Shown one piece after another: positions 1 through 38,013 of a stretch of DNA of 64,000 nucleotides; the first letter of the stretch is position 1; each line of letters starts with the position of its first letter. Origin of the DNA: Ostreococcus lucimarinus (Eukaryota); assembly GCA_000092065.1 (NCBI GenBank), contig CP000582.1. The stretch is one strand, 5' to 3'. The position numbers were made by a program, and so were the translations under genes. The notes below the pieces were generated by a model, which saw only the letters and a list, made by a program, of their open reading frames with translations, did not search any database and was not told the origin of the DNA.

Positions 1-803
1 AAAACGCTGAGGACAATGTTGTGATGTATCTCCTTAGCCTTTCCTTCGCTCGTGAGCTGATTGAGCAAGCGCACCGCGCGCTCCCACTGCAAACTCTTTT
101 CGTACGCGTGCAACATGGCGCTATACGTGTGGTCGTTCGGCGCCGGTCCGTCGCGACGCATGTCCTCGAACAAAGCCTCGGCGAGCTTCCAATCCATCGC
201 CTCAGCGTACGCCTTCATGACCGCCGTGCACGTGAAAGTCGTGCGAGGCACGCGCGTGAAGGTTTCTATCGCCTCTTCGTAGTTCCCACATCGACACATC
301 GCCGTCATGTAATCCACGTACAGCTTGCTATCCGTCGCCCGCCCGCTCGACTCGATGGCTCGCAACATCGCCCTCGCGTTGTCTTCGCTCCCCAAAACCC
401 CGAAAGCGCTGATGAGCGCCGACGCGATCGCCAAGTCCGGTTCCACGCCATCGCGTTTCATCTCTGGAATCAACTTCACCACCGCGCGCGCCCCCGCGCG
501 CCCGCCGTTCGCCCCGGCTCTGACCAACGCGCTGTACGTGTGCGCGTTTCTCGCCGTCCCCGCGCGCTTCATCTCCCCCAGCATCCCCAGCGCCTCCTCC
601 CACCGTCCAGCGCCGTCCAGCGCTTGCACGCACGTCGTATACGTGTGCGTCGTCGGCGCCACCTCTCGCGCGTCCGCGCTCCGTCTTTTCATCCACTCCA
701 GCGTCGCCAACGCCTTATCCGCGTCTCGCGCGCGCGTCGCCAACGACATCATCGTCGTGCACACGTGCGCGTTCGGCCACACCTCAGAGTCATCCGCCGT
801 CAT
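1..803 (-). CDS. Pentatricopeptide repeat (PPR) protein, 3' partial (runs off the window start)
   Basis: Manual minus-strand translation (codon phase 0 mod 3 on + coordinates) gives PPR-type 35-aa repeats: VWPNAHVCTTMMSLATRARDADKALATLEWMKRR, HTYTTCVQALDGAGRWEEALGMLGEMKRAG, NAHTYSALV..., EPDLAIASALISAFG..., KLYVDYMTAMCRCGNYEEAIETF, TFTCTAVMKAYAEAMDWKLAEALFEDMRRDGPAPNDHTYSAMLHAYEKSLQWERAVRLLNQL. There is an in-frame stop at 870-872 and the first Met is at 803-801. It is absent from the ORF track because its stop lies outside the window. Confidence 0.5.
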   Translation of the reverse strand, partial: MTADDSEVWPNAHVCTTMMSLATRARDADKALATLEWMKRRSADAREVAPTTHTYTTCVQALDGAGRWEEALGMLGEMKRAGTARNAHTYSALVRAGANGGRAGARAVVKLIPEMKRDGVEPDLAIASALISAFGVLGSEDNARAMLRAIESSGRATDSKLYVDYMTAMCRCGNYEEAIETFTRVPRTTFTCTAVMKAYAEAMDWKLAEALFEDMRRDGPAPNDHTYSAMLHAYEKSLQWERAVRLLNQLTSEGKAKEIHHNIVLSV

Positions 804-1277
804 CGCGTCGAATATTCCGCTCGCCACGTCTCGCGCGCCTTTCGCGCCTCGCTCGCGTCCGACGCGCTTCAGCTCTTGTATCAACCACGTCGCCGCGCCG
901 CGCTCGAGCGCCGTCGACGCGCCTCGCGCCCCCTCCTCCTCGCGCGCGCGCCTCGCCGCGCGATCGCGCGTCCGCGCGCCGTCGACGAGTCGCTCGACCT
1001 CGTCGTCGACGTCTCGCGCGCCGTCGCGCGCGTCGCGCGCGTCGCGCGCGTCCGCGACCGCGCGCGTTCGCGACGACGTCACGCGACGGCGGCGCGTCGC
1101 GCGCGCGCCGCCGCGCGCGTCGCGCGCGCGCGCGGGCGACGACGACGCGCGCGACGTCCGCGCGGACGTCGACGCGCGCGCCGACGCGCGCGGCGCGGAC
1201 GCGACGCGCGCCGACATCCGCGCGACGGTTCGCGGCGAAGTGACGATTTCGACGCGTCGAGGTCGCCGCAGAGCGCG

Positions 1278-2684
1278 ATGCGGCCGACGCCGCCGCGCGC
1301 GCGCGCGCGCGCGCGCAAAGCCACGCGCTCGCGCGCGCTCGCGACGCGCGCGATCGCGACGATCGCGGCGACGATCGGCGCGCGCGCGGTCGATGTCGAT
1401 TCATATTTTTCGCGAAGCGAATCTTCCGCGTTCGTGCGCGCGACGTCGAACGGCACGTTCGCGGTCGGGTGCGAATCCCGAAACGTCGCCGGGATGAATT
1501 TTTACCCGCTCGTCGAGTTCGCGGGGGAATTCGCGCGCGCGAGCTTCGGGTTCGACCACGGAGACGGACGCGGACGCGCCGCGGCGAGGGACGTTTTCAA
1601 GCTCGCGCGCGAGAGCGGGATGACGACGATTCGCGCGTGGGCGTTTTCGGTGAACCCCGCGGTGCCGACGTGGGTGCGCGTGGGTGAGAGGCATCGCGAG
1701 GACGTGCTTCGAGGATTGGATTGGGCGCTCGCGGAGGCGGCGAAGCACGGATTGGATTTGCTCTTGGCGTTCGGCGACTACTGGCACACGACGGCGGAAA
1801 TCGTGCGAGAGTGCGCGCCGGAGGACGCGGAGACTGAGGACGCCGATCGCGCATTTTTCTCGCGTGAAAGCTGTAGGGAATTGTTTAAATGGCACGTGCG
1901 CACGATTTTGACGCGGAACAACACGTTCACGGGCGTGACGTATTCGACGACGCCGAACGTCTTCGGGTGGAATTTGATGAACGAGCCGCGGTGTCGAGGA
2001 TGCGACGACGCGCTTCAGGACTGGATCGACGACATGGCTGCGTACGTCAAGGCGTTCGATTCCAATCACATGCTGACCGTGGGTGAGGAAGGATTCTACG
2101 CGCACGACTCGAGTTCAGAGGGAGGCGCCGCCGCCAATCCCGCGGCGTGGGCCGCGACGACTGGGCAAGATTTCATTCGCAACCACGCGTCGAAGCACAT
2201 CGACTTCGCGACGATTCACGTGTGGCGAGACAATTGGGCGGTGTATTCGCCGAACGTGCGATTCAACGCGCAGAGATTCACTCGAAATTGGATCGCAACG
2301 CACGAGCGCGATTGTCGCACGAAGCTCCGGAAGCCGCTCTTAATCGAGGAATTCGGCGCGGCGCCCGGCGGGGTTCGCGCGCTGTCTCGCGTCAGCCGCG
2401 GCGTGAGCCGAAGGGCGTCGTTTCTAGAGGAGCGCGACGTCGAAGATTACTACCGCGCACTTCTATCACAGGTGTACCGAAGCATCGCGAGCGACGACGG
2501 GAAATTCGTTCGCGGCGCGTTATTTTGGGGGATGTTCCCGGAGGACCACCGCGGGGTAGTGGACGCGTACGATCCCTACGCCGTGTACCCGAGCGATGGC
2601 GCGTTCGCGCAGGCGACTCGTTTTGCGAAGAGCGTGCGCCGAGTCGTGCGTTCGATGTCGTGCGAGGAAGACGGGCGCGATTAA
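1278..2684 (+). CDS. Glycoside hydrolase family 5 mannan endo-1,4-beta-mannosidase
   Basis: The C-terminal part of ORF 21..2684 carries a GH5 mannanase signature (FGFDHGDGRG...RAWAF, WNLMNEPRC catalytic acid region, LLIEEFG nucleophile region). I place the start at ATG 1278, the first Met before the catalytic domain, with a signal-peptide-like ALATRAIATIAATIGARA. The upstream 21..1277 is Arg-rich low complexity antisense to the PPR gene. Confidence 0.55.
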   Translation: MRPTPPRARARARKATRSRALATRAIATIAATIGARAVDVDSYFSRSESSAFVRATSNGTFAVGCESRNVAGMNFYPLVEFAGEFARASFGFDHGDGRGRAAARDVFKLARESGMTTIRAWAFSVNPAVPTWVRVGERHREDVLRGLDWALAEAAKHGLDLLLAFGDYWHTTAEIVRECAPEDAETEDADRAFFSRESCRELFKWHVRTILTRNNTFTGVTYSTTPNVFGWNLMNEPRCRGCDDALQDWIDDMAAYVKAFDSNHMLTVGEEGFYAHDSSSEGGAAANPAAWAATTGQDFIRNHASKHIDFATIHVWRDNWAVYSPNVRFNAQRFTRNWIATHERDCRTKLRKPLLIEEFGAAPGGVRALSRVSRGVSRRASFLEERDVEDYYRALLSQVYRSIASDDGKFVRGALFWGMFPEDHRGVVDAYDPYAVYPSDGAFAQATRFAKSVRRVVRSMSCEEDGRD

Positions 2685-2727
2685 ATCATGGTAAGTTTGG
2701 TGATGTAATGAAAAGTACGATGGCGGT

Positions 2728-4119
2728 CTACGCCGTCTTGAGTTTCTCGGCTTCGATCGAAGAATCCGGGAGTTTGGCCATCAACGCCGCGCCGGCGGTG
2801 GCGGCGACCGTGGACGACGCCAACACGGCGAGTTTCGCGACGTTGGCCGCCGAGGGCTGACCCGCGAGCGCCATCTCAACGAGGAACAAGCACATCGTGA
2901 AACCGATACCGCCGAGCAAACCGACGATGATGAGGTGGGAGTTGTTCATTCCGCTCGGAAGCTTGCCGATTTTGGACTTGACGGCGAGCCAGGACAAACC
3001 GGCGATGCCGACGGGCTTACCCAAGAGCAAGCCGAGCATGATGCCTTGACCGACGGGTTCGGTGAACACCTTGCTCACCATGCTTGCGTCTAAAGGCACG
3101 CCCGTGTTCGCCAACGCGAAGAGAGGCATGATGACGAGCGCGGAGAGCGGGGCGAACTTGTGCACCAAGTGATCCAAGAGCGTCGGTTCGCCGCCTTCGT
3201 GTTCGGGCGTCGCGTCGCTCCCGGCGGGCGCCATCGCGTGCGCGGGCACCGCGAACGCGGCGATGACGCCCGCGACATCGGCGTTGATGCCGCCTTGCAA
3301 CAGACAGTACCACAGGGCCACGCCGAGGGCGGCGTAAACAGCCATGTTGGTGACTTCCTTTTTGCACGCGACGAAGAGCGCCGCCGTGGCCGCCGCCGCG
3401 CCCGCTATGTACGACATCGTCAACGATTTCGCGAAGCACACGGCGATCACGGCGATCGCGCCCAGGTCGTCCACGGTGGCGAGGGTGAGCAAAAACGCCG
3501 CCACGCCGCCCGGCATTTTATTTTTAAAAAAGTTGTACACTCCCATGGCGAACGCGATGTCCGTCGCCATCGGAATCGCCCAACCCGCCGTCACCGCCGC
3601 CGCCGTCGCGCCCGGATTATTACACGCCAAATACACCCCCATGGGCACCAGCATCCCGCCCAGCGCGCCGATGCACGGCAACGCCGCCTGTTGCAGGCTT
3701 CGCAGCGAGCCGTGCACGAACTCGCGCTTGATCTCCAGCCCGACGGCGAAGAAGAAAATCGCCATCAACCCCTCGTTGACCCAGTGATGCAGGCTCATGT
3801 GCAGCGCCAGCGCCGCCGGCCCGACTTTTGCGTGCCAGAACGACAGATACGCCCCAGACATCGCGCTGTTCGCCAGCGCCAGCGACACCGCGGTGGCTCC
3901 GAGGAGCGCGATCGAGCCGAAGCCCGCGTCGAGCGCCGCGTGCACGTCGACGCCCTTCATGAACGTCCCCTGCTCGCTCTCCGCCCCGTCCGTCGTCGCG
4001 CGTGCCGCGACGCGCGCCCCGACGCGCGCGGATTTTTCCACGCGTCGCGTCGCGACGCCCGCGACGCCCGCGAGCGACGCCCGCGCGCGCACCGACGGTT
4101 TCCGCGTCGCTCGCGCCAT
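2728..4119 (-). CDS. nhaA: Na+/H+ antiporter, NhaA family (bacterial type), with N-terminal transit-peptide-like extension
   Basis: NhaA hallmarks: HHWVNEGLMAIFFFAVGLEIKREF, PMATDIAFAMGV, FLLTLATVDDLGAIAVIAV, with roughly 11 TM segments. ORF 2728..4488 is trimmed to Met at 4119 (MARATRKPSVRARASLAGVAGVATRRV..., Ala/Arg/Ser-rich like an organellar presequence). An alternative start is at 3960 (MKGVDVH). Confidence 0.6.
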   Translation of the reverse strand: MARATRKPSVRARASLAGVAGVATRRVEKSARVGARVAARATTDGAESEQGTFMKGVDVHAALDAGFGSIALLGATAVSLALANSAMSGAYLSFWHAKVGPAALALHMSLHHWVNEGLMAIFFFAVGLEIKREFVHGSLRSLQQAALPCIGALGGMLVPMGVYLACNNPGATAAAVTAGWAIPMATDIAFAMGVYNFFKNKMPGGVAAFLLTLATVDDLGAIAVIAVCFAKSLTMSYIAGAAAATAALFVACKKEVTNMAVYAALGVALWYCLLQGGINADVAGVIAAFAVPAHAMAPAGSDATPEHEGGEPTLLDHLVHKFAPLSALVIMPLFALANTGVPLDASMVSKVFTEPVGQGIMLGLLLGKPVGIAGLSWLAVKSKIGKLPSGMNNSHLIIVGLLGGIGFTMCLFLVEMALAGQPSAANVAKLAVLASSTVAATAGAALMAKLPDSSIEAEKLKTA

Positions 4120-4278
4120 CGAAATTCGACATTCGCGCGGACTTTTCCGCGCGTCGCGCGCGATCGAAGCGCGCGTCGGTCGCGCGCTCGCGCGCGCCGC
4201 GAGCATCCCGTCGATTCGCGTCGGTCGTCGATCGCACCGCGCGGTTCTCGCGCGCGCGTCGCGGTGCGACGCCGACGA

Positions 4279-5466
4279 ATGGCGCGAGCGGGACAAACTG
4301 CAAAAAGCGTCCCGCGACACTCGACGGCGCGCATGCGCGCGTCCGCGCGTCCGCGCGCGATCGTCGCGCGCGCGTCCAGCGCGTCGTTCGAGGATAAGTT
4401 GGCGCGCGCGCGCGGGCTGTTCGGCGTGGACTCCATCGACGCGCACGCGTCGCCGAAATCCGCGGGGTTTCGCGAGCGCGCGAGTCACGGCGTCGAGAAG
4501 ACGCGCGACGGCGCGCTGCGGCTGGTGAGCGTGCGCGCCGCGACGGGTGCGCTGGTGACGTCGGACGCGACGTCGCGCGACGACGCGGCGGGCGTCGAGC
4601 GGGCGAGGGAAATCTTCCTGAGGGTCGCGAACGACGACGCGTGGACGACGACGCGAGCGCGCGTGACGGCGGCGAATTTTTTAACGAATCGAACGTCGGA
4701 TGAGATCGTGATCGCGTGCACGCTGTCGGCGGAGAGCGGCGATGGCGACGACGCGACGTGGATGGAGTTCGCGGAGGCGATGCGAGCGCTCGACGACGCC
4801 GTCGTCGGGTGCGTTCGAAAGCGTAAGAAGACGCCGAAGCTCGTCGTCGGGCGCGATTACGTGACGGAGACCACGCGCTTGGTCGACGGTCGTTCGGTGG
4901 TTTTTAAACACGTCGAGGGGAGCTTTTCAAATCCGAACGGTGGCGTCGCCGAACTCACGGCGAATCATCTCGTTCGGATTTGCGCGGATATCGCCGGCCC
5001 GAAGACGAAATTCATCGAGCTGTACGCCGGTTGCGGAAATCACACGTGTTGCATGGCGCCGCAGTTTCCCGGCGGCGCGTTCGCGGTGGAGATTGATCCG
5101 GTTTTGGTGGAAGCGGCGCGAGAAAACTTTGCGCGCAACGGCGTTCGAGCGGAAATCGTGTGCGAACGCGCCGAGGATTGGATCGCGTCTCGCGAAAGTC
5201 CCACGAACGACCGCGACGTCGTCCTGCTCGTCGATCCACCGCGCGGTGGGTTGGACGCGCGCACGCTCGACGTCGTCACGCGCGAATTCGACGACGTCAT
5301 TTACGTCGCGTGTGACTGCGAATCACTCAAGCGAGACATCGACGACGAGCGCGTGGGATTCGCGGCGAGAGGGTTCGAACTGACATCGCTCGCGTGTTTC
5401 GACCACGCGCCGACGTCGCCGCGATGGATCGAAACCGTGGGGGTTTTTAAGAGGCGAGAGGCGTAG
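4279..5466 (+). CDS. tRNA (uracil-5)-methyltransferase, TrmA/RumA (TRM2-like) family
   Basis: Class I SAM MTase m5U motifs: ELYAGCGNHTC, LLVDPPRGGLD, VIYVACDCESLKRD. I take the first ATG (4279) in this frame after the divergent NhaA start. The last ~55 nt of the CDS plus the 3' flank form copy 1 of the 160-bp tandem repeat. Confidence 0.55.
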   Translation: MARAGQTAKSVPRHSTARMRASARPRAIVARASSASFEDKLARARGLFGVDSIDAHASPKSAGFRERASHGVEKTRDGALRLVSVRAATGALVTSDATSRDDAAGVERAREIFLRVANDDAWTTTRARVTAANFLTNRTSDEIVIACTLSAESGDGDDATWMEFAEAMRALDDAVVGCVRKRKKTPKLVVGRDYVTETTRLVDGRSVVFKHVEGSFSNPNGGVAELTANHLVRICADIAGPKTKFIELYAGCGNHTCCMAPQFPGGAFAVEIDPVLVEAARENFARNGVRAEIVCERAEDWIASRESPTNDRDVVLLVDPPRGGLDARTLDVVTREFDDVIYVACDCESLKRDIDDERVGFAARGFELTSLACFDHAPTSPRWIETVGVFKRREA

Positions 5467-5891
5467 GAATAGACCGAGTAGCCGTAGCGAAAGACTTAAT
5501 AGCTATACACAATGCACAAATCACGTGATGACGTCGTCGTCGCGACTCGTGTCGGCGGCGTTTCGATTAAAGACGTCGCCGCGATGGATCGAAACCGTGG
5601 GGGTTTTTAAGAGGCGAGAGGCGTAGGAGTAGACCGAGTAGCCGTAGCGAAAGACTTAATAGCTATACACAATGCACAAATCACGTGATGACGTCGTCGT
5701 CGCGACTCGTGTCGGCGGCGTTTCGATTAAAGACGTCGCCGCGATGGATCGAAACCGTGGGGGTTTTTAAGAGGCGAGAGGCGTAGGAGTAGACCGAGTA
5801 GCCGTAGCGAAAGACTTAATAGCTATACACAATGCACAAATCACGTGATGACGTCGTCGTCGCGACTCGTGTCGGCGGCGTTTCGATTAAA
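5412..5891. repeat. Perfect tandem repeat, 3 x 160 bp
   Basis: Copies at 5412-5571, 5572-5731 and 5732-5891, marked by gcgatggatcgaaaccgtgg at 5421, 5581 and 5741. The only difference I see is ggaatag (copy 1) versus ggagtag (copies 2 and 3). Copy 1 holds the stop codon (5464-5466) and C-terminal codons of the tRNA methyltransferase gene. Confidence 0.9.
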
Positions 5892-6746
5892 TCCCACCGC
5901 ATCCATCACCCCCGCGTGCGCGTTCAACGCCTCGGCCATCTCGCGATTGCTCGGTTCGTCGACCCACTCTTTCACGACCTCGGATCCGTCGTCGTTCCAC
6001 AAATACCATCTCCCCGGCCACCTTCGCACGAGCGTTCCCTCCGCGCCGGCCGCGGATCTCGTTCGACGACACGCGTACACCTTCTCCCACGCGTCCGTCG
6101 TCAAACACGCTCTCGCCGCCTTCTTCAACCCAAACTCCCACGGCTGTCCCACCTCCTCGCCTCGCCCCGTCCAAAACGCGTTCACCGCGACGACGATTTT
6201 CGACTCCACCTCGCCGTGCTCTCCCGCCAACAGTTTCAAAAAGTACCCGAACGTCACGTCGCTCACGTGCGTCACCACCACCGCGAACGCTTCGTCGCTC
6301 GCGTCGTTCGCGCGCAGGCTCCACAGTCCCACGCCCTCGGCGTCGCGGTCGAGCCGCCCGTGATACTCGCTCGCGTACCCGTCGAACGCGTCCCGCTCGA
6401 GCAGCGCCCGCGTCGCGCGAAACCGCTGCGCCATCCCGCCCGACCAATCCGCGGCTTGTCCGTGCAGGCCGAGGTAGACGACGTCGTCCGTCCCGACGTC
6501 GATCGACGGCAGCGGGAGCTCGACGCGCGCGCGTCGAGGCGCGGCGTCGGCGTCGCGGAGCGCGCGAAACGTCGCGCGCGCGTCCCGCGCGGCGTCCGCG
6601 CACGTCCGAGGCGGTGGCGCGCGGGACGACGCGACGATCGCGCGACGCGCGGGCGCGCGGGCGTGCGCGACGATCGCGCGACGCGCGGGCGCGCGCGCGA
6701 CGCCGCGCGGGACGCGCGCGCGCGGCGACGACGCGCGGCGCGCCAT
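5841..6746 (-). CDS. Hypothetical conserved protein with Arg/Ala-rich presequence
   Basis: A 301-aa ORF whose C-terminal 200 aa are non-low-complexity (VVYLGLHGQAADWSGGMAQRF..., FGYFLKLLAGEHGEVESKIVVAVNAFWTGRGEEVGQPWEFG, RWYLWNDDGSEVVKEWVDEP). The N-terminus has an internal 9-aa duplication (ARAPARRAIVA x2). The C-terminal ~17 codons lie inside copy 3 of the 160-bp repeat. I do not recognise the family. Confidence 0.4.
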   Translation of the reverse strand: MARRASSPRARVPRGVARAPARRAIVAHARAPARRAIVASSRAPPPRTCADAARDARATFRALRDADAAPRRARVELPLPSIDVGTDDVVYLGLHGQAADWSGGMAQRFRATRALLERDAFDGYASEYHGRLDRDAEGVGLWSLRANDASDEAFAVVVTHVSDVTFGYFLKLLAGEHGEVESKIVVAVNAFWTGRGEEVGQPWEFGLKKAARACLTTDAWEKVYACRRTRSAAGAEGTLVRRWPGRWYLWNDDGSEVVKEWVDEPSNREMAEALNAHAGVMDAVGFNRNAADTSRDDDVIT

Positions 6747-6889
6747 GACGCGCGGCGAACGCGACGCGCGCGACGACGCGCGCGCGCATCAACCCGTAAC
6801 ACGAACGCGGTGGAGGTCGCGGGTGTCGTCGGGCGATTTATTCGTGTTGTGTCGTAGTGTAGACGATTTCGTCCTATCATCAATCACAA

Positions 6890-7033
6890 GGGGCATTGGT
6901 CTAGTGGTATGATACTCTCTTAGGGTGCGCGCGACGACGCGTCACACTCGAGACTCGAGCTCGGCTCGCGCCGAGCGCTCGATCGGCTTCACTGACGTGG
7001 GAGTGGTCCGCGGTTCGATTCCGCGATGCCCCC
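6890..7033 (+). tRNA. tRNA-Pro (anticodon AGG) with ~72-nt intron in the anticodon loop
   Basis: Manual fold: acceptor GGGGCAT/ATGCCCC plus discriminator C; D-arm GTCT-AGTGGTAT-GATA; anticodon stem CTCTC/GGGAG (one G-U); loop TTAGGG[intron]T with anticodon AGG; variable loop TGGTC; T-arm CGCGG-TTCGATT-CCGCG. The exons (6890-6925 and about 6998-7033) closely match eukaryotic tRNA-Pro(AGG). The intron sits at the canonical 37/38 position. Confidence 0.8.
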
Positions 7034-7098
7034 TCTTTCTCTTTTTTTTATATTAATGGTGTGATGCTACTGATGAACCCGCGTGAATGTCGCGGCGT

Positions 7099-8331
7099 TC
7101 ACATCGGAACGTAATGCGTGTCCTCCCTGTGCGCGCCGTTTTCGTAGTACTTCGTGTACCAGCGCACAAAGTTTTGCAAGCCCTCGTCCAGGCCGACGGT
7201 GGGATTGTATCCCAAGTCTCGCTTGGCCGCCGAAATGTCGGCGTGCGTGAACGGGACGTCGCCGGTTTTCGGCATCGGGACGTAGTTTCGCTTGGCGGTC
7301 TTACCGAGCGCCTTTTCGAGCGACGACACGAAGTCGCTCACCGTCACCGGTTTGGTGTTTCCTAGGTTGTATACCCGGAACGGCGGCTTGGAACCGTCGG
7401 AGTTTTTCCCGCTCTTCTCGCTCGTGTCACACGCCGCGATCGTCCCTCGAACGACGTCGTCGATGTAGGTGAAATCGCGAGCGAGCTCGCCCCCATCCGG
7501 GCCTTTGAAAATTTTGATCGGCTTGTCTTGCATGATGTTGTTCGCGAAGGAGAAGTACGCCATGTCCGGGCGCCCGTACGGCCCGTAAACCGTGAAAAAT
7601 CTCAACGCCGTCAACGCCACGCCGTGAATGTGGTTGTACGTGTGCGCGAGCAGTTCGTCCGCTTTCTTCGTCGCCGCGTACAAGGACGCCGGGGAATCCG
7701 TGACGTCGGTTTCGCTAAACGGCACCTTGGTATTCAACCCGTACACGCTCGACGACGAGGCGAAGATGACTTTTGGCATGCGTTTCATGTGAACGATCTC
7801 TTCCATCAGCGTCACGAACCCGGCGACGTTGGAGTGCACGTACGCCCCCGGATTTTTCACCGCGTATCTCACCCCCGCCTGCGCCGCCAGGTGCACCACC
7901 GTCGTCACCTCGCACGTCTCCAAAATCTTCCGCACCGTCACCGCATCGTTCAGATCCGCCTCCACCACGTGCACACCGATCTCGCTCAACTTCCCCATTC
8001 GACTCCGCTTCAATCCGCGCGGGTAATAATCGTTCACGTTATCCAGTCCCACGACGCCCGCGCCTCGTCGCTTCAGCGCCGTCGCCACGTTCGATCCCAC
8101 GAACCCCGCCGCGCCCGTCACCAGATACACCTCTCCCGACGCGCTCGCGCACGATTTCACGAGCGCTCGCGTCGTCATCTTCCTCGCCGTGATGCTGAAC
8201 GCGCTCAGCGGTCCCGCCTTGAGCACCTCCTCGCCGTACGACGTCCCGCGCGCGCTCGACCTCGCCCACAGCGACGCGCAGATCACGAATCCGATCAGCA
8301 CGCTGCACGAGTGTCGCCCCAGCCTGCGCAT
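7099..8331 (-). CDS. GAE: UDP-glucuronate 4-epimerase (plant GAE-type, type II membrane anchored)
   Basis: Near end-to-end similarity to plant GAE1 from my memory of that family: VTGAAGFVGSNVA Rossmann motif, HLAAQAGVRYA, SSSSVYGLNTKVPFSE, YAATKKA (YxxxK), FFTVYGPYGRPDMAYFSF. There is an N-terminal TM segment (VLIGFVICASLW). ORF 7099..9333 is trimmed to Met at 8331; the upstream 1 kb is Arg-rich filler. Confidence 0.8.
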   Translation of the reverse strand: MRRLGRHSCSVLIGFVICASLWARSSARGTSYGEEVLKAGPLSAFSITARKMTTRALVKSCASASGEVYLVTGAAGFVGSNVATALKRRGAGVVGLDNVNDYYPRGLKRSRMGKLSEIGVHVVEADLNDAVTVRKILETCEVTTVVHLAAQAGVRYAVKNPGAYVHSNVAGFVTLMEEIVHMKRMPKVIFASSSSVYGLNTKVPFSETDVTDSPASLYAATKKADELLAHTYNHIHGVALTALRFFTVYGPYGRPDMAYFSFANNIMQDKPIKIFKGPDGGELARDFTYIDDVVRGTIAACDTSEKSGKNSDGSKPPFRVYNLGNTKPVTVSDFVSSLEKALGKTAKRNYVPMPKTGDVPFTHADISAAKRDLGYNPTVGLDEGLQNFVRWYTKYYENGAHREDTHYVPM

Positions 8332-8809
8332 CGTCGACGCGAAGTTCCCACCGCTCTTCTCGCGCGGTCCCTCGCCGCGCGCGCGTCCGTACGCGAACCG
8401 CGCGCCGTCGCGCGAGCCCATCGCGCGCGCGCGATCGACACGCGTCGCGCGTCGCGTTTCCCGACGCGCGCACCGACGCGTCGCGCGTCGCGAGCGTCCG
8501 GCGTCGTCGCGCGCGCGCGCTCGTCGCGCCGCGCTCGAATCGCCCCGCGCGCGGCGACGTGCGGACGCCGCGCGACGCGAAGGCGTCCCGAGCGATCGCA
8601 TCGGAACGCGCGAATCGCGACACCGCGACGCGCCGATCGCGGCGATCGCGCGATCGACGACGCGAAAGCGCGGCGCGCGCATTCTTTGACGCGCGACGAC
8701 GCGCGACGACGCGCGCGGGCGATCGAGCGCGGCGCGCGAGGACGCGTTCGATCGCGAATCGGCGCGAAGGATTCGAGCGGCGAATCTCGATCGAGCGTCG
8801 ACGCGCGCG

Positions 8810-10345
8810 ATGGCGCCCGGAACGCCGACGCTGCGGCGGCAGGGCACGGCGGAGTTCTTGGGCGCGCTGCTGCGGTCGGAATCGGCGCACGACGTGGCGC
8901 AGGAGGCGGACGTGGACGACGGGAGGGTGGGGACGCTGACGAAGACGCGCGTCGACGGCGACGACGACGCGTGGGCGAACGCGAGCGAACCTGGAAGCCC
9001 GTTCACGGGCGCGCGCGTGGGAATGCGACGACGGGGGAGCGGGCAGAGCGCGCGAGGGCTGCCGGTGGATCCGTTTCCGCTGAGCGAGGTGAGTAGGTTC
9101 GAGAGGGGGGACAGTCTGCGGGGAGGCGACGGGTTCGGCGAGGCGACGACGACGACGACGGATGGGCGCGAGACGGTGACCGAAGACGTCAAACGCGCGA
9201 CGACGGCGACGGTGACGATGGTGAAGAGCGTGCGGAAGAGCGCGAGGAACGCGGGGAAGTCTGGAACGAGGACGACGGCGGGGAAGAAGGCGTCGGGAAG
9301 CGCGAAGAGCGCGGCGCCGAACGCCGGATTCAAGTCCGCGGCGTTCGGTAAGGTGAACGCGCAACACGGGGCGAACGATGCGGGCGATCATCACGGATGG
9401 ACGTACATTCCTAAACGTGCCGATCGTCGACGCGCTATCGCGCGATTTACGACCGCGATCATTCGCGCCGCGGGGCATCAGAGTTTCATAAGTCGCGAGG
9501 GCGTGGGCTATCGCAGAGCTTTCGATAGATTTCTTTTGGAGACGTACGGGGACACGTTCGCGGAGGGTGGATACTGGTACAAGAACGCCGAAATCGAGCC
9601 GTTTTTTCGTATGATTCTCTTCATCGCCACGGAAGGGAAGATGAACATAGCGAACGACGACGTGAAGTATTTATTCACGAAGAAGGAGGAGCGACAGGCG
9701 GCGGAGTGGGTGCTCGACGAGGACGTCTTGGCCAGACTCGGACTGACGGCCAAGGATGTCGCGCTGGTGTACGAGGGTCAACCGAGAAAGACGTCCAAAG
9801 GATTCGTGCGCGGCACGCCTCTGAAGGTCCCGCCTTCGACGCACATGCCCCCGGAGCCCGCGCCGTCTTTGGAAGCCGTGGTGCGCGCCAAGACGACCAA
9901 CTCCGCCGCCATGCCACCGCCACCGCCTCGAGCGCGCACGCCCTCCATCGTGCAATCGGCGGCGATGAGCGAAACCGGCGACGCGGCGAGCTCCATGATC
10001 GGCGTTCCGATGGAGATTCAAAAACTCTTTGAGCAAATTCCGAAACCAAACATTCACCCCGGATTGAGCGCGACGAAATCGAGACAAATGTCTCGACAGT
10101 ACTCGAGCGATCTCTCTCGGCTGATGAGCGAATTCAACACCGATCCCGCGCAAGGCGATGAATTCGTGCGCCAGTATCTCCAGCGCAGCGCGAGCGAACT
10201 CGACGCCATCGCGGCGATTCAAGGCAGCGAGAGCAAGGCAAAGTCGCGCGCGGCGGCGGCGGCGAACAAGAAACCCGCGGTCAAGAAATCGACACCCACT
10301 AGCACCACAACCAGCGCGTCTCGCGCGTCTAAACGTAAGCGCTAA
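8810..10345 (+). CDS. Hypothetical protein with basic C-terminal tail (KRKR)
   Basis: A 511-aa ORF with a non-repetitive central region (GWTYIPKRADRRRAIARFTTAIIRAAGHQSFISREGVGYRRAFDRFLLETYGDTFAEGGYWYKNAEIEPFFRMILFIATEGKMNIANDDVKYLF) and locally lower GC at 9420-9700. The tail is Lys-rich and NLS-like. Family not recognised. Confidence 0.4.
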   Translation: MAPGTPTLRRQGTAEFLGALLRSESAHDVAQEADVDDGRVGTLTKTRVDGDDDAWANASEPGSPFTGARVGMRRRGSGQSARGLPVDPFPLSEVSRFERGDSLRGGDGFGEATTTTTDGRETVTEDVKRATTATVTMVKSVRKSARNAGKSGTRTTAGKKASGSAKSAAPNAGFKSAAFGKVNAQHGANDAGDHHGWTYIPKRADRRRAIARFTTAIIRAAGHQSFISREGVGYRRAFDRFLLETYGDTFAEGGYWYKNAEIEPFFRMILFIATEGKMNIANDDVKYLFTKKEERQAAEWVLDEDVLARLGLTAKDVALVYEGQPRKTSKGFVRGTPLKVPPSTHMPPEPAPSLEAVVRAKTTNSAAMPPPPPRARTPSIVQSAAMSETGDAASSMIGVPMEIQKLFEQIPKPNIHPGLSATKSRQMSRQYSSDLSRLMSEFNTDPAQGDEFVRQYLQRSASELDAIAAIQGSESKAKSRAAAAANKKPAVKKSTPTSTTTSASRASKRKR

Positions 10346-10450
10346 TTGATGACCGATGCCACACCGTTACTGTAACACCGATCGATAAACGAAGACGAAG
10401 ACTTCGCGCTCGCCCGCTCGCGTCGCGTCACTCGCCGCCTCCCCTTTCCG

Positions 10451-11443
10451 ATGTCGATCGCCCCTCGCCTCGACGCGCCCGCGCCGTGTCCTTCGCACCG
10501 TTTCGTGCGGTTCACCCACGGCGCGTCCTCGACCGCGCGCGTGGGCGTGTTGCTCGCCGAGGACAAACACTCCAAGGCATCACCCAGTTCGGGACATCAC
10601 CAAACAGTGTACGCCGCGAAATTCCGCGATAAACGCCGCGACGGCGCGCAAGCGGTCGTCTCGCGAACGATGCGCGAGTTATTGACGATGTTCTACGCCC
10701 TCGATGCGTACGAGATGACGCTGGACGCGGACGATGGATGGACGCTCGGAAACGTGACGCTGCTCGCGTGCGCGGACGACGACGCAAAGGTGTGCTGCGT
10801 GGGGAAGAATTACGTCGAGCACGTCGGTGAGGTGGACACGCAGATGCCGGGAATAAGTAAAACCGCGATACCGGAGCTGCCGATTATTTTTCCCAAGGCG
10901 TCGACGTCGTTGTGTGGGTCGGGGACGTCGGTGGAGTTGCGCGAACGCGAGGACGTCGATTACGAGGGCGAGCTGACAGCCATCATAAAGCGCGAGTGCA
11001 AGGACATCTCGGACGACGCGAGCGATGTGGATGTCATCAGCACCTACGTCGCCGGTTGGACGATCGCCAACGACGTGACGGCGAGAGTACTGCAAAAGAG
11101 TCACCAGCAGTGGTATCTGGGCAAGAGCTGTGACGGATTTTGTCCTCTGGGGCCGTGGATCGTGGCCGGGCACGACGCTCTCCCATCCGCCGCATCATTG
11201 GTCACAAAAGTTAACGGTGAGATCCGACAAAACTCCACCGTCGACAAGATGATTTTCAGCACCGCGGAACTGATCAGATGCGTGTCCAAATATCAAACCT
11301 TGCGTGCCGGCGACGCGATATTAACGGGAACGCCGAGCGGCGTCGGCGCCGGTTTCAATCCCAAGCGATTCCTGCGCCCTGGCGACGTCGTGGAGATTGA
11401 AATAGAAGGCATCGGCGCGCTCGTGAACGACTTTGTAGCGTAG
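10451..11443 (+). CDS. Fumarylacetoacetate hydrolase (FAH) domain protein, FAHD1-like
   Basis: FAH-fold motifs: VGKNYVEHVGE, IFPKASTSL, DYEGELTAII, GWTIANDVTAR, WYLGKSCDGFCPLGPWIV, GDAILTGTPSGVG. Confidence 0.7.
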   Translation: MSIAPRLDAPAPCPSHRFVRFTHGASSTARVGVLLAEDKHSKASPSSGHHQTVYAAKFRDKRRDGAQAVVSRTMRELLTMFYALDAYEMTLDADDGWTLGNVTLLACADDDAKVCCVGKNYVEHVGEVDTQMPGISKTAIPELPIIFPKASTSLCGSGTSVELREREDVDYEGELTAIIKRECKDISDDASDVDVISTYVAGWTIANDVTARVLQKSHQQWYLGKSCDGFCPLGPWIVAGHDALPSAASLVTKVNGEIRQNSTVDKMIFSTAELIRCVSKYQTLRAGDAILTGTPSGVGAGFNPKRFLRPGDVVEIEIEGIGALVNDFVA

Positions 11444-11503
11444 CACCATAGAATTGTAAAGTCGTCGTCGAAATCCGCGCGCGACGCCGCACTCCGCGAC
11501 GCC

Positions 11504-12227
11504 ATGGCGTTCCGCCTGCCTTTGGCGCACCCCGAATCCGCCCGCGCGCGCGCGCGCGTGATCTCTAACGCCAAGGGACGCAACAGTCGCGCGCGAGGCG
11601 GCGAATACAACAAGAAGCGCGCCGGCACGGAGGACGAGAGCGAAGATGCCTTAGCCATTGAAAGATTGGAATCTACCGCGCGTTCATCGCGTTCGAGCGC
11701 GTACGACGCCAAAAAGTTGGCGAAAATGAAAGGTACGAGCGCGTTTCGTGTGTGTGCGCCACCGACTGACGAGGATGATCGTTTCGCGCGCAGCGCAAGC
11801 GGATATCCGTCAACGCGAGGAGTCGACGAAGCGCGCGGCGTTCGACACCAAGTACAAAGCGCGCCAGCGAGAGGGCTTGCCGCAAGTCGTCACGGATAGG
11901 ATGTTGAAGCGAGTCGGGATCTTTTGCGGGACGCCGTTGGTCCTCGGGTTCATGACGGGACCGGCGTTTTATTACGCCAAAGTCATCGCCAAACTCGAGG
12001 TGCCGAGCTGGGTATTCTTCGTGTCTTCCACGGCGACGTTCGGGGCGGCGGTGGTCGGGATCAGTTACGGTGTTTTGAGCGCGAGTTGGGATCCTCGAAT
12101 GGAGGGGTCGTTTTGGGGTGGGAGCGAATTCAAACAAAACGTGCCGATAGTCGTGTCCACCATCATGGGTAAAGCGCGCGGGGAGGTTCCGATCGAGTGG
12201 GACGACGAGACGGACGAGGATATTTGA
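11504..12227 (+). CDS. PAM68: PAM68-like thylakoid protein (DUF3464), two exons
   Basis: Proposed model is join(11504..11732, 11794..12227) with a 61-nt GT-AG intron (gtacgagcg...ttcgcgcgcag), donor after AAA ATG AAA G, phase 1. Exon 1 supplies a presequence (MAFRLPLAHPESARARARV...) and a KKLAKMK basic stretch. Exon 2 matches the PAM68 core: KARQREGLPQVVTDRMLKRVGIFCGTPLVLGF...YYAKVIAKLEVPSW, GISYGVLSASWDP.EGS. Without splicing, only an ORF with no plausible N-terminus remains. Confidence 0.5.
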
Positions 12228-16259: not shown

Positions 16260-17132
16260 ATGTCGCGCGCGCGTCGCGATTTGATGTCGATCGCCACACC
16301 TCGACGCATGGCGACGCGCGTTCGCGCCGCGCCGACGCCGCGCGCGGCGCCGCCGCGACGCCGCGTCGCGCGACGCGCGTACGGGACGTCGACGCGCGAC
16401 GGGACCTTCGTCGAGGGGCCCGGAAACGCGTTCGGGCGATTGATCGACGCCGCGCGAGGCGCGCGCGACGTCGTCCAGGCGGGCGCGCCGGCGCTGCGAG
16501 ACGTCGCGCGCGCGGTCGACGTCGACGAGATCGACTCGACGGAGATCCAGGAGTTGATCGCGGAGATGCTGCGCGTGTGCAGAGCGCGCGGGGTGGGGCT
16601 GGCGGCGCCGCAGCTGGGGGCGCGGCGACGCGTCGTGGTGCTGGAGGACACGACGGAGGGCATGTCGGACGAGACGAGCGAGGCGCTGGCGATGAAGCGA
16701 CGCGAGGCGTTCAGAGCGAAGGTGATCGTGAATCCGACGCTGACGCCGATCGGGGACGCGAGCGCGGCGTTCTTCGAGGGATGCCTGTCGGTGGCGGGAT
16801 ATCGCGCGGTGGTGCGGCGACACCTCAGGGTGCGGTGTCGAGGGTACGGCGGCGACGGGAAGCCGGTGGATTTCGAAGCCGTGGGGTGGGAGGCGAGGAT
16901 TTTGCAGCACGAGGTCGATCACCTGGACGGGGTGCTGTACACGGATCGCATGGAATCGCGAACGCTGCGAAGGGTGGATTTGCTCGACGAGCCGCTGCCG
17001 GGGGATCACCCAGAGTTCGGCGAGGCGGTGGTGCTCGGGGAATCGACCGCGCCCGTGCGGCGGGGCCCGGGCGCGAGCGCCGCGGAGGACGTCGAGGCGC
17101 GCGTCAAGGCTCGGAAAAATCGTAAAAAGTAG
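16260..17132 (+). CDS. PDF: Peptide deformylase, organellar
   Basis: The three PDF motifs are present: GVGLAAPQLG (motif I), FFEGCLSVAGYRA (motif II, EGCLS) and QHEVDHLDG (motif III, HExxH). The N-terminus is presequence-like. An alternative start is at 16308. Confidence 0.75.
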   Translation: MSRARRDLMSIATPRRMATRVRAAPTPRAAPPRRRVARRAYGTSTRDGTFVEGPGNAFGRLIDAARGARDVVQAGAPALRDVARAVDVDEIDSTEIQELIAEMLRVCRARGVGLAAPQLGARRRVVVLEDTTEGMSDETSEALAMKRREAFRAKVIVNPTLTPIGDASAAFFEGCLSVAGYRAVVRRHLRVRCRGYGGDGKPVDFEAVGWEARILQHEVDHLDGVLYTDRMESRTLRRVDLLDEPLPGDHPEFGEAVVLGESTAPVRRGPGASAAEDVEARVKARKNRKK

Positions 17133-17836
17133 AGTCGGCGGCGAGAAATCGAAAAGGAGCGCCGTCGGCGAGAAATCGTACAAAGGAGAGCCGCGAGTGT
17201 CGGCGTAGAATCTTAGCGACTCTTTAGCGCATCATTTTTAACGCATCGAACATTCGCGCGACCGCTCGCGTCTCGAGCTCGCGGAGCGTCGTCTTCGTCG
17301 GGTTTTCGCGCCGTTCGCCGCGCGACGCGAGGGCGAGGGTTCGCGCGCGCGCGCGAACCGCACTTCTCGGCGCGCGTCGCACGTCGAGGTCGTCGCCGAC
17401 GTCCCGTTCGCCCCAAAGGTGACAGACGACGGCTTGCGCGACTGTTAAGCCCCACGCGCGCGCGTGGTGACGCGATCGACGCGAGATTCAACGCGAATTC
17501 GCGTGAATTTCAAGAAAGCGAGATCGCGACACAAACGGCTCGCGCGCGCGTTCAAAGCGAACTCGCGAGCGAGACGCGCGCGCAAAGCGTGAAAAGGTTT
17601 GTGTTCTTTCGTTTGAATCGGTAGCGCCGCCGAGTGGCATAGCACGTGCTCGAGCATATCGGTGAATACACATACAGCAGTTGTCGTAGCAGACGCGCGA
17701 GAGATCTCGAGCGCGGTTTTCGTCGATTGACTCGATTCCTCGCTCGCTCGCTCCCGGCGTGCGTGCTGACGTTTGACTTTTGGCTTTTGCGCACGCGTTC
17801 GCGTCGTGTTGTTGTTCAATCGTAGCACTCGCGAAG

Positions 17837-21639: not shown

Positions 21640-21690
21640 GTCGCGCGCGCGCGCCGTCGCGTCGAACTCGCGATACCAACGGTCGCGTTT

Positions 21691-21725
21691 CGAATCGAAT
21701 CGAATCGAATCGAATCGAATCGAAT
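21691..21725. repeat. Microsatellite (CGAAT)7
   Basis: Direct reading: cgaatcgaatcgaatcgaatcgaatcgaatcgaat. Confidence 0.9.
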
Positions 21726-22116
21726 CGATCGCGCGTTCGTGTCGATCGCGCCGTCCGCGACGCGTCGCCGAGTGGCGCGACGCCGCGCGCGTCGCGCCGT
21801 CTTTCGCGCGTCGTCTCAACCCTAGGCCAGGGTCGCCGTCGCCGGCGTCGTCGTCGTCGTCCGCGCCCGAGCGCGCAGGCTGGACAAAACGCGCGCGATG
21901 GTTTTTATCTCATGGGTCTACATTTCACTGAATACGTAGAAAACAAAACGACATTCGCATGTGTATTACATACACATTTTGTTGCACGCGCGTGTAATGA
22001 TCACGGGTCACGACTCAAGAGTATACATGTACGTATGGGTAAACAGTGACGATGCGTCGTCCGTCCCGACGGACCGACGCCCCGCACACCGACGCGCGCC
22101 GACGGTCGACCGCGCG

Positions 22117-36893: not shown

Positions 36894-37988
36894 ATGTCGA
36901 CGCTCGACGCGCTCGAGCGATGCGCGAGAGAAACGCGCGAGTACGTCGGCGCGCGCGTGACGCGCGCGACGTCGCCGCCGAGCGCGCTGGCGTTCGCGAT
37001 GGCGCACATCGCGGCGAACGTGCCGCTGTTGACGGCGAACGCGACGACGCACTGGCGCGCGCACGACGCGTGGCGCGCGAACGAGGGCGTGATGGAGGAT
37101 TTCGGAGGCCCCGATGCGGTCGTCGAGGTGAACGCGACGCCGAACGGGCGAGGAGACGCGGTGCACAGGGTGGAGAAAGATGGCTGGGCGCGACTCGGGA
37201 CGGGGACGCGGTGCGAGACGACGGGACGAGGCGAGACGCGCGACGCGTTCGACGCGTTCGTGGAGCCGGCGAAGAGGGAAATGACGATAAAGGAATTGTT
37301 TGAATCGCTCGAGGACGGCGCGGGGACGGGGACGGCGTGGTATCTGTCGGGGCAGAACGATAATTTGAGGTCGAGCGAAGCGTTGGCGCGCGCGGGCGCG
37401 CGAAACGACTTCGACGTCCCGTTCGCTCGCGAAGCGTTCGCGAGCGTGGGGAAAGCCGGTCGTGACGGTTTAGGGGAGGCAGTGAACCTGTGGATCGGGA
37501 ACGATGCGTCGCAGACGTCGTATCATCAGGATTTCTATGAGAATATTTACACCGTCGTGCGCGGGACGAAGGTCTTCTCGCTTCGACCGCCGTGCGACGT
37601 GTTCGACATGCGCGCGACGGAAGCGGTTCGCGGCGTGTTCGAAACCGACGACGCGCTCTCATGGCGAATTAAACTCCGTCCTTCGTTCGAACCGCGCGTT
37701 GTCTGGAGCGCGGTGGACCTCGATCCAGTCACGGGCGAGCCGATTTTCGGCGACGACGACGCGTTACGATACCGTCGACCGCGTCCCGAACCGTGCTTCG
37801 ACGTCGAAGTGCGCGCGGGCGAAACACTCTACATCCCCGCGATGTGGTTCCATCGCGTGCGTCAAAAAGGGATCGCGATCGCGGTGAATTCGTGGTTTGA
37901 CATGCATTTCGGCGACCGATACGCGACGCGTCCGCTGTGGGAGCCGTCGCGACGCTCCATGTCAAGTTCTAGCGTAACTCTAGCGTAA
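36894..37988 (+). CDS. JmjC-domain (cupin) protein, JMJD7-like
   Basis: JmjC core: LWIGNDASQTSYHQDFYENIYTVVRGTKVFSL (HxD/E metal triad region) and ETLYIPAMWFHRV. Upstream, VEVNATPNGRGDAVHRV parallels the JMJD7 pattern VSVAVTPDGYADAV. The stop codon lies inside the 11-bp tandem repeat. Confidence 0.55.
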   Translation: MSTLDALERCARETREYVGARVTRATSPPSALAFAMAHIAANVPLLTANATTHWRAHDAWRANEGVMEDFGGPDAVVEVNATPNGRGDAVHRVEKDGWARLGTGTRCETTGRGETRDAFDAFVEPAKREMTIKELFESLEDGAGTGTAWYLSGQNDNLRSSEALARAGARNDFDVPFAREAFASVGKAGRDGLGEAVNLWIGNDASQTSYHQDFYENIYTVVRGTKVFSLRPPCDVFDMRATEAVRGVFETDDALSWRIKLRPSFEPRVVWSAVDLDPVTGEPIFGDDDALRYRRPRPEPCFDVEVRAGETLYIPAMWFHRVRQKGIAIAVNSWFDMHFGDRYATRPLWEPSRRSMSSSSVTLA

Positions 37989-38013
37989 CTCTAGCGTAAC
38001 TCTAGCGTAACTC
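37970..38013. repeat. Tandem repeat (TAGCGTAACTC) x4, 11-bp unit
   Basis: Direct reading. Each unit carries TAG and TAA, so across the array there are stop codons in all three forward frames. The array overlaps the stop of the JmjC gene. Confidence 0.85.

Follow-up and report, generated by a model that had tools for sequence, protein, structure and literature searches.

A probable recent, haplotype-specific tandem triplication of a convergent 3'-3' gene junction in Ostreococcus lucimarinus

Introduction

The Ostreococcus genome is among the most compact eukaryotic genomes known. In the stretch of O. lucimarinus DNA analyzed here (64,000 nucleotides, hereafter the window), which comes from strain CCE9901 or one almost identical to it, a 160-bp segment is present three times in direct succession where a TrmA-like tRNA methyltransferase gene and a DUF1995 gene meet with their 3' ends. 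The locus raises the question whether such an array is a real feature of the organism or a product of assembly and, if real, what exactly was repeated, how the copies arose and what they may mean for the two genes. We consider it probable that the array is real and evolutionarily recent, belongs to a particular haplotype and arose by tandem triplication of the whole 3'-3' junction between the two convergent genes of O. lucimarinus.

Structure of the array

Tandem Repeats Finder reports window positions 5412-5891 as a repeat of period 160 with 3.0 copies, 99% matches, no indels and a score of 953. The copies are arranged head-to-tail without any intervening sequence, and direct comparison shows that the repeat stops exactly at both array edges, with not one base of extension beyond either, so that the array holds exactly 3.0 copies. 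Chance is ruled far out as the source of a 160-bp triple with one mismatch. The original prediction of three 160-bp copies with a single substitution is upheld by both approaches. The components of the array are:

5412-5571: copy 1; A at unit position 58; sequence of the single-copy allele of 25 environmental contigs
5572-5731: copy 2; G at unit position 58 (window 5629); derived, identical to copy 3
5732-5891: copy 3; G at unit position 58 (window 5789); provides the functional 3' end and the stop codon of the DUF1995 gene
5469: the sole variable site of the array (unit position 58); A in copy 1, G in copies 2 and 3
5558-5585: unit-to-unit junction, ATTAAA/GACGTC at 5571/5572 and again at 5731/5732; 0 nt microhomology

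The variable site lies 3 nt past the TrmA stop codon. Copy 1 represents the ancestral sequence state, because it is identical to the single-copy allele of the 25 environmental contigs. From the ancestral 54 bp, the stop-to-stop distance of the two genes has grown to 374 bp in the window.

Gene content of the repeated unit

The unit consists of the final 55 nt of the TrmA-like CDS, the 54-nt spacer and the final 51 nt of the convergent DUF1995 CDS. It had been described as a duplicate of the 3' end of the methyltransferase gene; this piece is present, with 17 sense codons and the stop falling in the unit and the gene ending inside copy 1, but the description is incomplete, as the last 16 codons and the stop of the minus-strand gene also belong to the unit. 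Each copy is therefore the entire convergent 3'-3' junction of both genes and not just the TrmA end plus flank. That the minus-strand gene terminates in copy 3 and that copies 2 and 3 create small open reading frames (ORFs) was likewise found, the former as ORF 5841-6746 and the latter as two 32-aa ORFs. The features of the region are:

4333-5466, plus strand: TrmA-like tRNA (uracil-5)-methyltransferase CDS (PF05958); last 55 nt in copy 1
5841-6746, minus strand: DUF1995 CDS (PF09353); last 51 nt, including the stop codon, in copy 3
5467-5520 (unit positions 56-109): original 54-nt spacer between the stop codons; repeated at 5627-5680 and 5787-5840
5520-5529, also 5680-5689 and 5840-5849: 10-bp palindrome ATCACGTGAT, overlapping the DUF1995 stop codon
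5446-5450, again 5606-5610 and 5766-5770, plus strand: UUUAA, putative variant of the poly(A) signal of O. lucimarinus; precedes the TrmA stop by 14 nt
5825-5829, again 5665-5669 and 5505-5509, minus strand: UGUAU, putative variant of the poly(A) signal; follows the DUF1995 stop by 12 nt
5512-5610, repeated 5672-5770, plus strand: junction-spanning 32-aa ORF, a by-product of the duplication

Both proteins are unaltered by the array, since each gene enters its nearest copy and meets its own stop there. The poly(A) signal of O. lucimarinus is UGUAA with variants (PMC6413133), and pentamers resembling such variants occur for both strands in every unit. The spacer region also harbors a degenerate tandem repeat of 21 bp that is older than the array (5455-5495, 81% matches). 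ARAGORN with default settings found no tRNA in 1-12000 and, with introns allowed, one at 6890-7033, outside the array.

The perfect palindrome ATCACGTGAT has the core CACGTG, and each unit contains two GACGTC palindromes besides. Together with the ORFs of 32-33 aa that cross the junctions, these motifs are what would speak for a functional array, in which the unit encodes a small RNA or peptide or multiplies a protein-binding site, the palindrome being G-box-like. Several results speak against such a function. At E<=1, no Rfam match lies in the array (the sole match in 5200-7300 is at 6767-6835, outside it, with E = 0.33), the DNA fold is no better than that of shuffled sequences (z = +1.25), an exact look-up of the 32-aa ORF yielded no gene with this product on record, the palindrome is not kept in the sister lineage, and the location is between two gene 3' ends, away from promoters. 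A functional array is thus highly improbable, and a structured RNA or an unusual DNA structure was rejected, as there is no Rfam match in the array, the fold equals that of shuffles and the palindromes are short. The palindromes are retained only as a possible stall site.

Occurrence at a single locus

A search of the 64-kb window with blastn recovered only the three copies, the next-best match being 36 nt at 81% identity. In the JGI metagenome contigs a 32-nt core of the unit was found at the orthologous locus only, in one contig, and in viral contigs it was not found. The search for further loci thus speaks for a local duplication and not a satellite.

Introner elements of similar unit length are known from the related genus Micromonas, and the unit is, like these, of about nucleosome length. 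This resemblance could suggest that the unit belongs to a dispersed family (a satellite, an introner-like element or other mobile DNA that had inserted between the two genes), but it is limited to the approximate unit length and the taxonomic neighborhood within the Mamiellophyceae. Unlike the Micromonas introners, the array was found at a single locus in the sequences searched, lacks both GT..AG splice-site ends and a target-site duplication, and did not come in as an insertion: the single-copy allele consists of the same 160 bp with the same flanks, holding the conserved C-termini of both proteins, so that the 'empty' allele already has the whole unit once. A dispersed element was rejected, being effectively refuted by the single-copy allele and by the single-locus occurrence in the window and in the metagenome and viral contigs, and its probability is negligible.

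Alleles in environmental contigs and in the sister lineage

As a population sample, 35 environmental contigs with at least 99% identity at the locus were compared. One copy is present in 27 of these, always of the A type, and 25 of the 27 match copy 1 at every base. A single, diverged copy is present in the sister lineage (about 92% identity), where the spacer is longer (115 nt between the called genes) and unalignable. Copy number thus differs among genotypes, with one in the 27 contigs, at least two in contig L015 and three in the window.

Contig L015 (ENA ERZ23496822), from a metagenome, contains the left flank, the unit, the ATTAAA/GACGTC junction and 55 nt of the next unit; the junction establishes two or more copies. 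Over 3,911 flanking sites it has 6 differences from the window and hence represents a different genotype. Among the 32 contigs that cover position 5053, it is the only one to share the A of the window. G at unit position 58 is confined to the alleles with the 160-bp duplication, namely the window and L015, and occurs in none of the 31 fully spanned alleles of other types (27 single-copy and four with smaller duplications); contig L019, discussed below, also has A. Both L015 and L019 end exactly 55 nt beyond their junctions, which we attribute to an assembly graph with k=55 that had run into a repeat. The G of L015 was set aside as a sign of a G-first array, because such a graph cannot tie position 58 to the left flank. 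A 28-mer across the junction gave no match in the JGI metagenome contigs, where just one contig carries the unit at all.

These alleles bear directly on the possibility that the three copies are an assembly error, made from one 160-bp segment or from a true duplication, for example by joining overlapping contig ends head to tail. The single copy in 27 of the 35 near-identical contigs would agree with such an error, and so would the one mismatch between copies, a pattern given by false joins of slightly different overlaps. However, the independent environmental assembly L015 has the same junction on the same flanking haplotype, and it is this combination of junction and flanking SNP that marks the duplication as real and haplotype-specific. 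Single-copy sequences had been named beforehand as a sign of an artefact; they do exist, but all of them differ from the window at 5053 and 6048 and are hence other haplotypes, not a collapsed version of the window. In addition, the C-terminal 234 aa of the TrmA-like protein of the window are identical to those of XP_001416256.1 of O. lucimarinus CCE9901 at NCBI, and a clonal haploid culture has no heterozygosity from which an A/G false join could arise. The CCE9901 reference is presumably a finished, Sanger-sequenced assembly, with reads that could span 480 bp. A false expansion is accordingly very unlikely, and of the two readings offered by the original prediction, recent expansion and assembly error, the former is favored. 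The 160-bp duplication is rare in wild populations, and the reference allele is the minority state.

Other tandem duplications at the same position

Further tandem duplications were found within the same approximately 175 bp:

44 bp: contig L005; 2 nt junction microhomology
82 bp: contigs L013 and L026, from two samples; 1 nt
82 bp plus 31 bp: contig L036; the 31-bp duplication is nested
149 bp: contig L019; 0 nt

Both ORFs are intact in all duplication alleles. Across the five duplication types, the stop-to-stop gap rises from 54 bp to 98, 136, 167, 203 and 214-374 bp. In 233 kb of aligned sequence, other indels of at least 10 bp are confined to low-complexity repeats rich in CG and to an N-gap of a scaffold. 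An apparent deletion of 102 bp in L005 at window position 7049 was not accepted, as it is most likely such a gap: the blastn alignment breaks there and the scaffold contains 200 N. This probable artefact lowers the trust in L005, the sole carrier of the 44-bp duplication. The locus appears to be locally prone to tandem duplication, a recurrence seen in metagenome assemblies (that of L005 an N-gapped scaffold) and in contigs sampled through protein look-ups and not at random.

All five tandem-duplication intervals of the population have in common a 19-nt segment (unit positions 104-122) that contains the palindrome ATCACGTGAT. It is followed by GACGTC, the center of which (unit 122/123) is the right breakpoint of two different duplications. 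A search for earlier literature on the array, or on small tandem duplications where Ostreococcus genes converge at their 3' ends, returned nothing specific.

The tandem duplications of human FLT3 in leukemia (FLT3-ITD) range from 3 to about 400 bp, are in-frame and coding, and are positively selected in tumors. As in FLT3-ITD, individuals at the present locus differ in the duplication and its breakpoints, all of which overlap one short segment; in contrast to these in-frame coding changes under positive selection, every duplication here spares both proteins.

Origin of the copies

The breakpoints lack pre-existing direct repeats and coincide with no unusual DNA fold (z as given above); slippage between pre-existing repeats would thereby be excluded as the source of the first duplication. 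The latter may have come from a break whose staggered ends were filled in and joined, or else from a template switch that used 0-2 nt of homology. Small tandem duplications with near-blunt junctions are a known outcome when staggered breaks are filled in and then closed by non-homologous end-joining (NHEJ) (PMC8355091). The alleles resemble the duplications attributed to Pol alpha-primase/CST and NHEJ (PMC8355091) and those linked to Pol theta (PMC5730883) in being head-to-tail and tens to a couple of hundred bp long. They also resemble fill-in and end-joining duplications, including the paired-nick duplications of plants, in their blunt junctions or microhomologies of 0-2 nt and in requiring no prior repeat. 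They differ from these systems in that the mechanism is deduced from the anatomy of the junctions alone, and in being natural alleles of a haploid alga that recur at one spot.

Once there were two copies, a third could readily have been gained by unequal exchange between sister chromatids or homologues, or by slippage of replication from one 160-bp repeat to another. For the A-G-G pattern, either the distal copy would have had to change from A to G ahead of this second step, or a crossover would have had to take place with an A allele of the single-copy type. Like a minisatellite or VNTR locus, the array is tandem with a unit longer than 10 bp, nearly identical copies and a polymorphic copy number (1, at least 2, and 3), and as for such loci more change by unequal exchange would be expected in it. 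Unlike these, it has three copies only, its unit is native single-copy sequence with two coding 3' ends and no repetitive core motif, and the other alleles at the locus are out-of-register duplications, not copy-number variants of one unit.

Transcript ends of the convergent genes

According to the gene table, convergent spacers in this genome typically measure 43-98 bp, and overlapping UTRs are known from O. tauri (PMC4378021). In the array, the putative poly(A) signals occur three times on either strand. Each mRNA would most likely still end in the first unit that it meets, while the two 3' ends would no longer abut or overlap. That the array alters the 3' UTRs and the putative terminators of the flanking genes is plausible; its effect is probably near neutral.

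An adaptive explanation holds that selection keeps duplications which part abutting or overlapping convergent 3' ends, reducing transcriptional interference or antisense pairing and adding back-up termination signals. It would account for the lengthened stop-to-stop gap and the preserved ORFs of all five duplication types, for the longer spacer of the sister lineage with 115 nt between the called genes, for the signal-like pentamers on both strands of each unit and for the presence of the 82-bp allele in three samples. However, single-copy alleles are the large majority (27/35), other convergent pairs on the same contigs are equally short (43-51 bp) and have no duplications, and purifying selection would by itself preserve the ORFs. 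We therefore regard selection for longer spacers as improbable.

Tentative, and less likely than not, is the idea that the convergent meeting point with its 54-bp gap is a mutational hotspot, where stalling or paired nicking at ATCACGTGAT/GACGTC may lead to blunt duplications of 31-160 bp, and that this may be the main route by which 3' spacers of Ostreococcus are remodeled. Two different duplications have the breakpoint at unit 122/123 in common. Under a hotspot, duplications would re-grow minimal 3' spacers and uncouple overlapping 3' UTRs, and the 21-bp repeat (5455-5495) as well as the longer, unalignable spacer of the sister lineage could be earlier rounds of the same process.

Instability at convergent genes has been reported for plasmid-borne genes in yeast (PMC3273821) and for hotspots of structural variation (PMC4951197). 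The present locus is similar in its recurrent rearrangements exactly where transcription units meet head-on. It is dissimilar in that the events described there are deletions, recombination and breaks, whereas here they are short, blunt tandem duplications. In addition, other convergent pairs nearby have no duplications.

Significance

Taken by itself, the array is a recent tandem duplication of an ordinary kind that leaves every protein as it was; the recurrence of duplications at the locus is mildly interesting. In the reference sequence of O. lucimarinus the array represents a confirmed length polymorphism and provides a PCR-sized marker with which one haplotype may be followed at sea; at the same time it is a caution that the reference carries a minority allele at this position. 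With at least five different blunt-junction duplications in a convergent 3' zone of about 175 bp, the locus offers a natural system for the creation and remodeling of spacers and terminators, and it could reveal whether convergent transcription or the local palindrome triggers the breaks.

Structure of the array

The array at window 5412-5891 is a real, recent tandem triplication of a convergent 3'-3' gene junction, specific to one haplotype of Ostreococcus lucimarinus. Tandem Repeats Finder (TRF) reports a period of 160, 3.0 copies, 99% matches, 0 indels and a score of 953, and direct comparison of the three copies places their sole difference at position 58 of the 160-bp unit (A versus G), with repeat identity ending exactly at the two outer boundaries. 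By blastn, the unit's closest match elsewhere in the 64 kb covers 36 nt with 81% identity, and an array of this kind cannot be a chance feature. The left gene encodes a TrmA-like protein (PF05958, tRNA (uracil-5)-methyltransferase, E = 4e-24; Pfam), and the right gene, on the minus strand, a DUF1995 protein (PF09353, E = 2e-11).

Features of the array (window coordinates, or positions 1-160 of the unit)
5412-5571, copy 1, A at unit position 58 (window 5469)
5572-5731, copy 2, G at unit position 58, identical to copy 3
5732-5891, copy 3, G at unit position 58, identical to copy 2
Unit, + strand, final 55 nt of the TrmA-like CDS with its stop at 53-55
Unit, spacer of 54 nt between the two stops
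Unit, - strand, final 51 nt of the DUF1995 CDS with its stop at 110-112
5512-5610 and 5672-5770, 32-aa junction ORFs (ORF listing)

The original prediction of three head-to-tail copies with one substitution, a TrmA-like gene ending inside copy 1, a minus-strand gene terminating in copy 3 and small ORFs in the repeat agrees with these data: the TrmA-like ORF ends at 5466 and the minus-strand ORF is 5841-6746. Its account of the unit as TrmA end plus flank is incomplete: each copy is a complete 3'-3' junction of the convergent pair. Both proteins are unchanged because the outermost copies stay joined to their genes, as in any tandem duplication. An exact look-up of the junction-ORF product among recorded genes gave no match.

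A sister lineage at about 92% identity conserves the coding portions of the unit, which confirms the unit ends as true C-termini; its spacer cannot be aligned and, at 115 nt from one called gene to the other, is longer. Most of the 54-nt spacer is a degenerate 21-bp x 2 tandem repeat (5455-5495, 81% matches), which suggests that the spacer is itself partly the product of an older small tandem duplication.

A dispersed satellite or introner-like family, which the original prediction had left open, and an insertion were rejected: in the window and the contigs searched the unit occupies a single locus, the "empty site" already contains it, and it has neither splice-site ends nor a target-site duplication. 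The window holds no other copy, and a search with the 32-nt unit core found one orthologous JGI metagenome contig only and no viral contig. A structured RNA was likewise rejected (no Rfam match in the array, fold z-score +1.25).

Organism and haplotype

The TrmA and DUF1995 proteins of the window are both present in the public protein collection. The TrmA cluster includes XP_001416256.1 of O. lucimarinus CCE9901, all 234 aa of which are an exact substring of the window's TrmA ORF. Base composition (63% G+C and CpG observed/expected 1.71 over the whole window) and gene neighbourhood fit a Mamiellophyceae alga. CpG is strongly over-represented, not depleted, and many TRF hits are mere CG-rich low-complexity tracts. 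Other near-perfect short tandem repeats lie at 37968-38013 (11 bp x 4.2, 100%), 21690-21728 (TCGAA x 7.8, 100%), 41718-41799 (18 bp x 4.6, 96%) and 17117-17193 (27 bp x 2.7, 82%).

At 5053 the window has A, which gives Met in place of Val in TrmA; of 32 environmental contigs only L015 shares it. The G at 6048 is private among 33. To the left and to the right of the array, the reference allele thus belongs to a minority haplotype.

Environmental alleles and the reality of the duplication

Around the locus, 35 environmental contigs from ENA, JGI and Logan, representing many samples and assemblers, are at least 99% identical to the window; they were gathered by exact-protein look-ups, except JGI contig L014, which came from a sequence scan. 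Exactly 160 bp, or one copy, separates the flanks in 27 of the 35. All 27 carry A at position 58 and 25 are identical to copy 1, which therefore has the ancestral sequence; the other two (L024, L027) have T at position 87. The G of copies 2 and 3 is either derived or taken from a rare haplotype.

The original prediction weighed recent expansion against an assembly artefact. Scaffold L015 (ENA ERZ23496822, sample SAMD00080429) favours the former: it encodes exactly the window's TrmA protein, then extends across one whole unit and the junction ATTAAA|GACGTC and ends 55 nt into the next unit, and 6 of 3,911 flanking sites differ from the window, marking a separate genotype. The same junction on the same haplotype in independent data speaks strongly against an artefact confined to the assembly of the window, and indicates one origin. 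L015 and L019 both end exactly 55 nt beyond a tandem junction, as would a path of a k=55 de Bruijn assembler re-entering a repeat; with such an assembler, the G at position 58 of L015 would not be phasable to the left flank. The copy number in the source strain would be three, as assembled, L015 supporting the junction and not the exact count. A junction scan of the JGI metagenome contigs found none, a negative of little weight because only one contig there carries the unit at all.

Other duplications at the same place

Further alleles with altered or interrupted units
L005, 44-bp tandem duplication of unit 104-147, in a scaffold with N-gaps elsewhere
L013 and L026, identical 82-bp duplication of unit 41-122 in two samples of different projects, position 87 reading T and then A
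L036, 82-bp duplication with an additional 31-bp copy that again has its right breakpoint at 122|123
L019, 149-bp duplication that begins 11 nt left of the unit and reaches unit 137, contig end 55 nt past the junction
L010, contig start inside the unit at position 59, just 3' of the A/G site
L038, contig beginning at unit position 92, where the 31-bp duplication has its left edge

For alleles that are complete or bear a junction, simple models of duplication leave only 1-2 SNPs to explain. Junction microhomology is 0 nt (160 bp), 1 nt (82 bp), 2 nt (44 bp) and 0 nt (149 bp). The segment common to all five duplicated intervals, unit 104-122, includes the DUF1995 stop as well as a palindrome, ATCACGTGAT, at window 5520-5529; directly after it comes the palindrome GACGTC. 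The starts of L010 and L038 are expected if their samples hold branching sequences there, and suggest that each of these samples contains more than one allele, perhaps with a single-copy G allele among them. L010 (Logan DRR894024) has 3 mismatches to the window in 10,957 nt and runs unbroken into the right flank; L038 is ENA ERZ12300341.

As a control, the array was collapsed in the window, all contigs were aligned to it (233 kb in total) and indels were called. CG-rich low-complexity repeats account for a 75-bp insertion at 1432 and for 30- and 156-bp deletions at 6661-6719 (DUF1995 N-terminal region), and one indel lies at a presumed N-gap in L005; apart from these and the duplications at the array locus, none of at least 10 bp was found in the 233 kb. 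The 75-bp insertion, in L013, falls in an intergenic or low-complexity stretch and is missing from the window and the other contigs covering the site. The spacers of further convergent pairs on these contigs are just as short (43-98 bp), and no duplication was seen in them among the 8-18 contigs covering each.

If protein-neutral duplications are spread by coverage over about 14 spacers, the share of this one is about 1/5, and the probability of four further independent junctions all landing here is about 1e-3, a rough figure from non-random sampling and metagenome assemblies. With that reservation the calculation is suggestive of a local duplication hotspot. The wider reading, in which such a hotspot regrows the spacer, is rather improbable.

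Neighbouring features

The transit-peptide-like N-terminal region of DUF1995 (6520-6790) contains a length-polymorphic, CG-rich 36-bp coding repeat (TRF period 36 at 6616-6787). At least nine contigs carry a 156-bp in-frame deletion allele (249 aa, protein P0112) and L002 a 30-bp deletion; cluster members have 282-293 aa versus 301 aa in the window. An intron-containing tRNA gene at 6890-7033 (+ strand), between the DUF1995 and epimerase genes, is missed by default ARAGORN and by Rfam. When introns are allowed, ARAGORN reports a tRNA-Val(AAC) whose 72-nt intron lies at a non-canonical position; judged by eye, the exons are more like those of a tRNA-Pro(AGG) interrupted at the canonical position.

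Mechanism

The copies are arranged head to tail on a single haplotype, the junctions are blunt, no repeat existed beforehand where the breakpoints lie, and the ORFs are intact. The first duplication probably arose when a staggered break was filled in and its ends were joined, or through a template switch with little homology; small tandem duplications are known to form in this way (PMC8355091; PMC5730883). Once two 160-bp repeats were present, unequal exchange or slippage probably produced the third. The order A-G-G requires one of two histories. Either the distal copy changed (A>G) ahead of the second step, or the progenitor carried G and a crossover inside copy 1 then brought in the common A allele. 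A crossover of this kind also accounts for the T-A order of the 82-bp allele, T at position 87 being a segregating SNP of single-copy contigs (L024, L027).

Consequences for 3' ends

The poly(A) signal of O. lucimarinus is UGUAA with variants including UUUAA and UGUAU (PMC6413133). The unit has UUUAA 14 nt before the stop on the TrmA strand and UGUAU 12 nt after the stop on the DUF1995 strand. With a single copy, the ends of the two mRNAs must therefore abut or overlap, which fits the overlapping UTRs reported in O. tauri (PMC4378021). The stop-to-stop distance is 374 bp in the array versus 54 bp in the single-copy allele. In the array, the first unit that each mRNA meets probably still provides its end, and copy 2 would be extra spacer with spare signals. 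The single-copy majority and the lack of duplications at equally tight neighbours argue against a strong selective advantage; the effect of the array is most likely neutral or nearly so.

The array adds one more case to a well-known class of mutation, and recurrence is the only feature worth following up. At least five different blunt or near-blunt duplications occur within about 175 bp in wild populations, with a shared breakpoint beside a palindrome; they may point to a site of local breakage or stalling at the collision of two transcription units.
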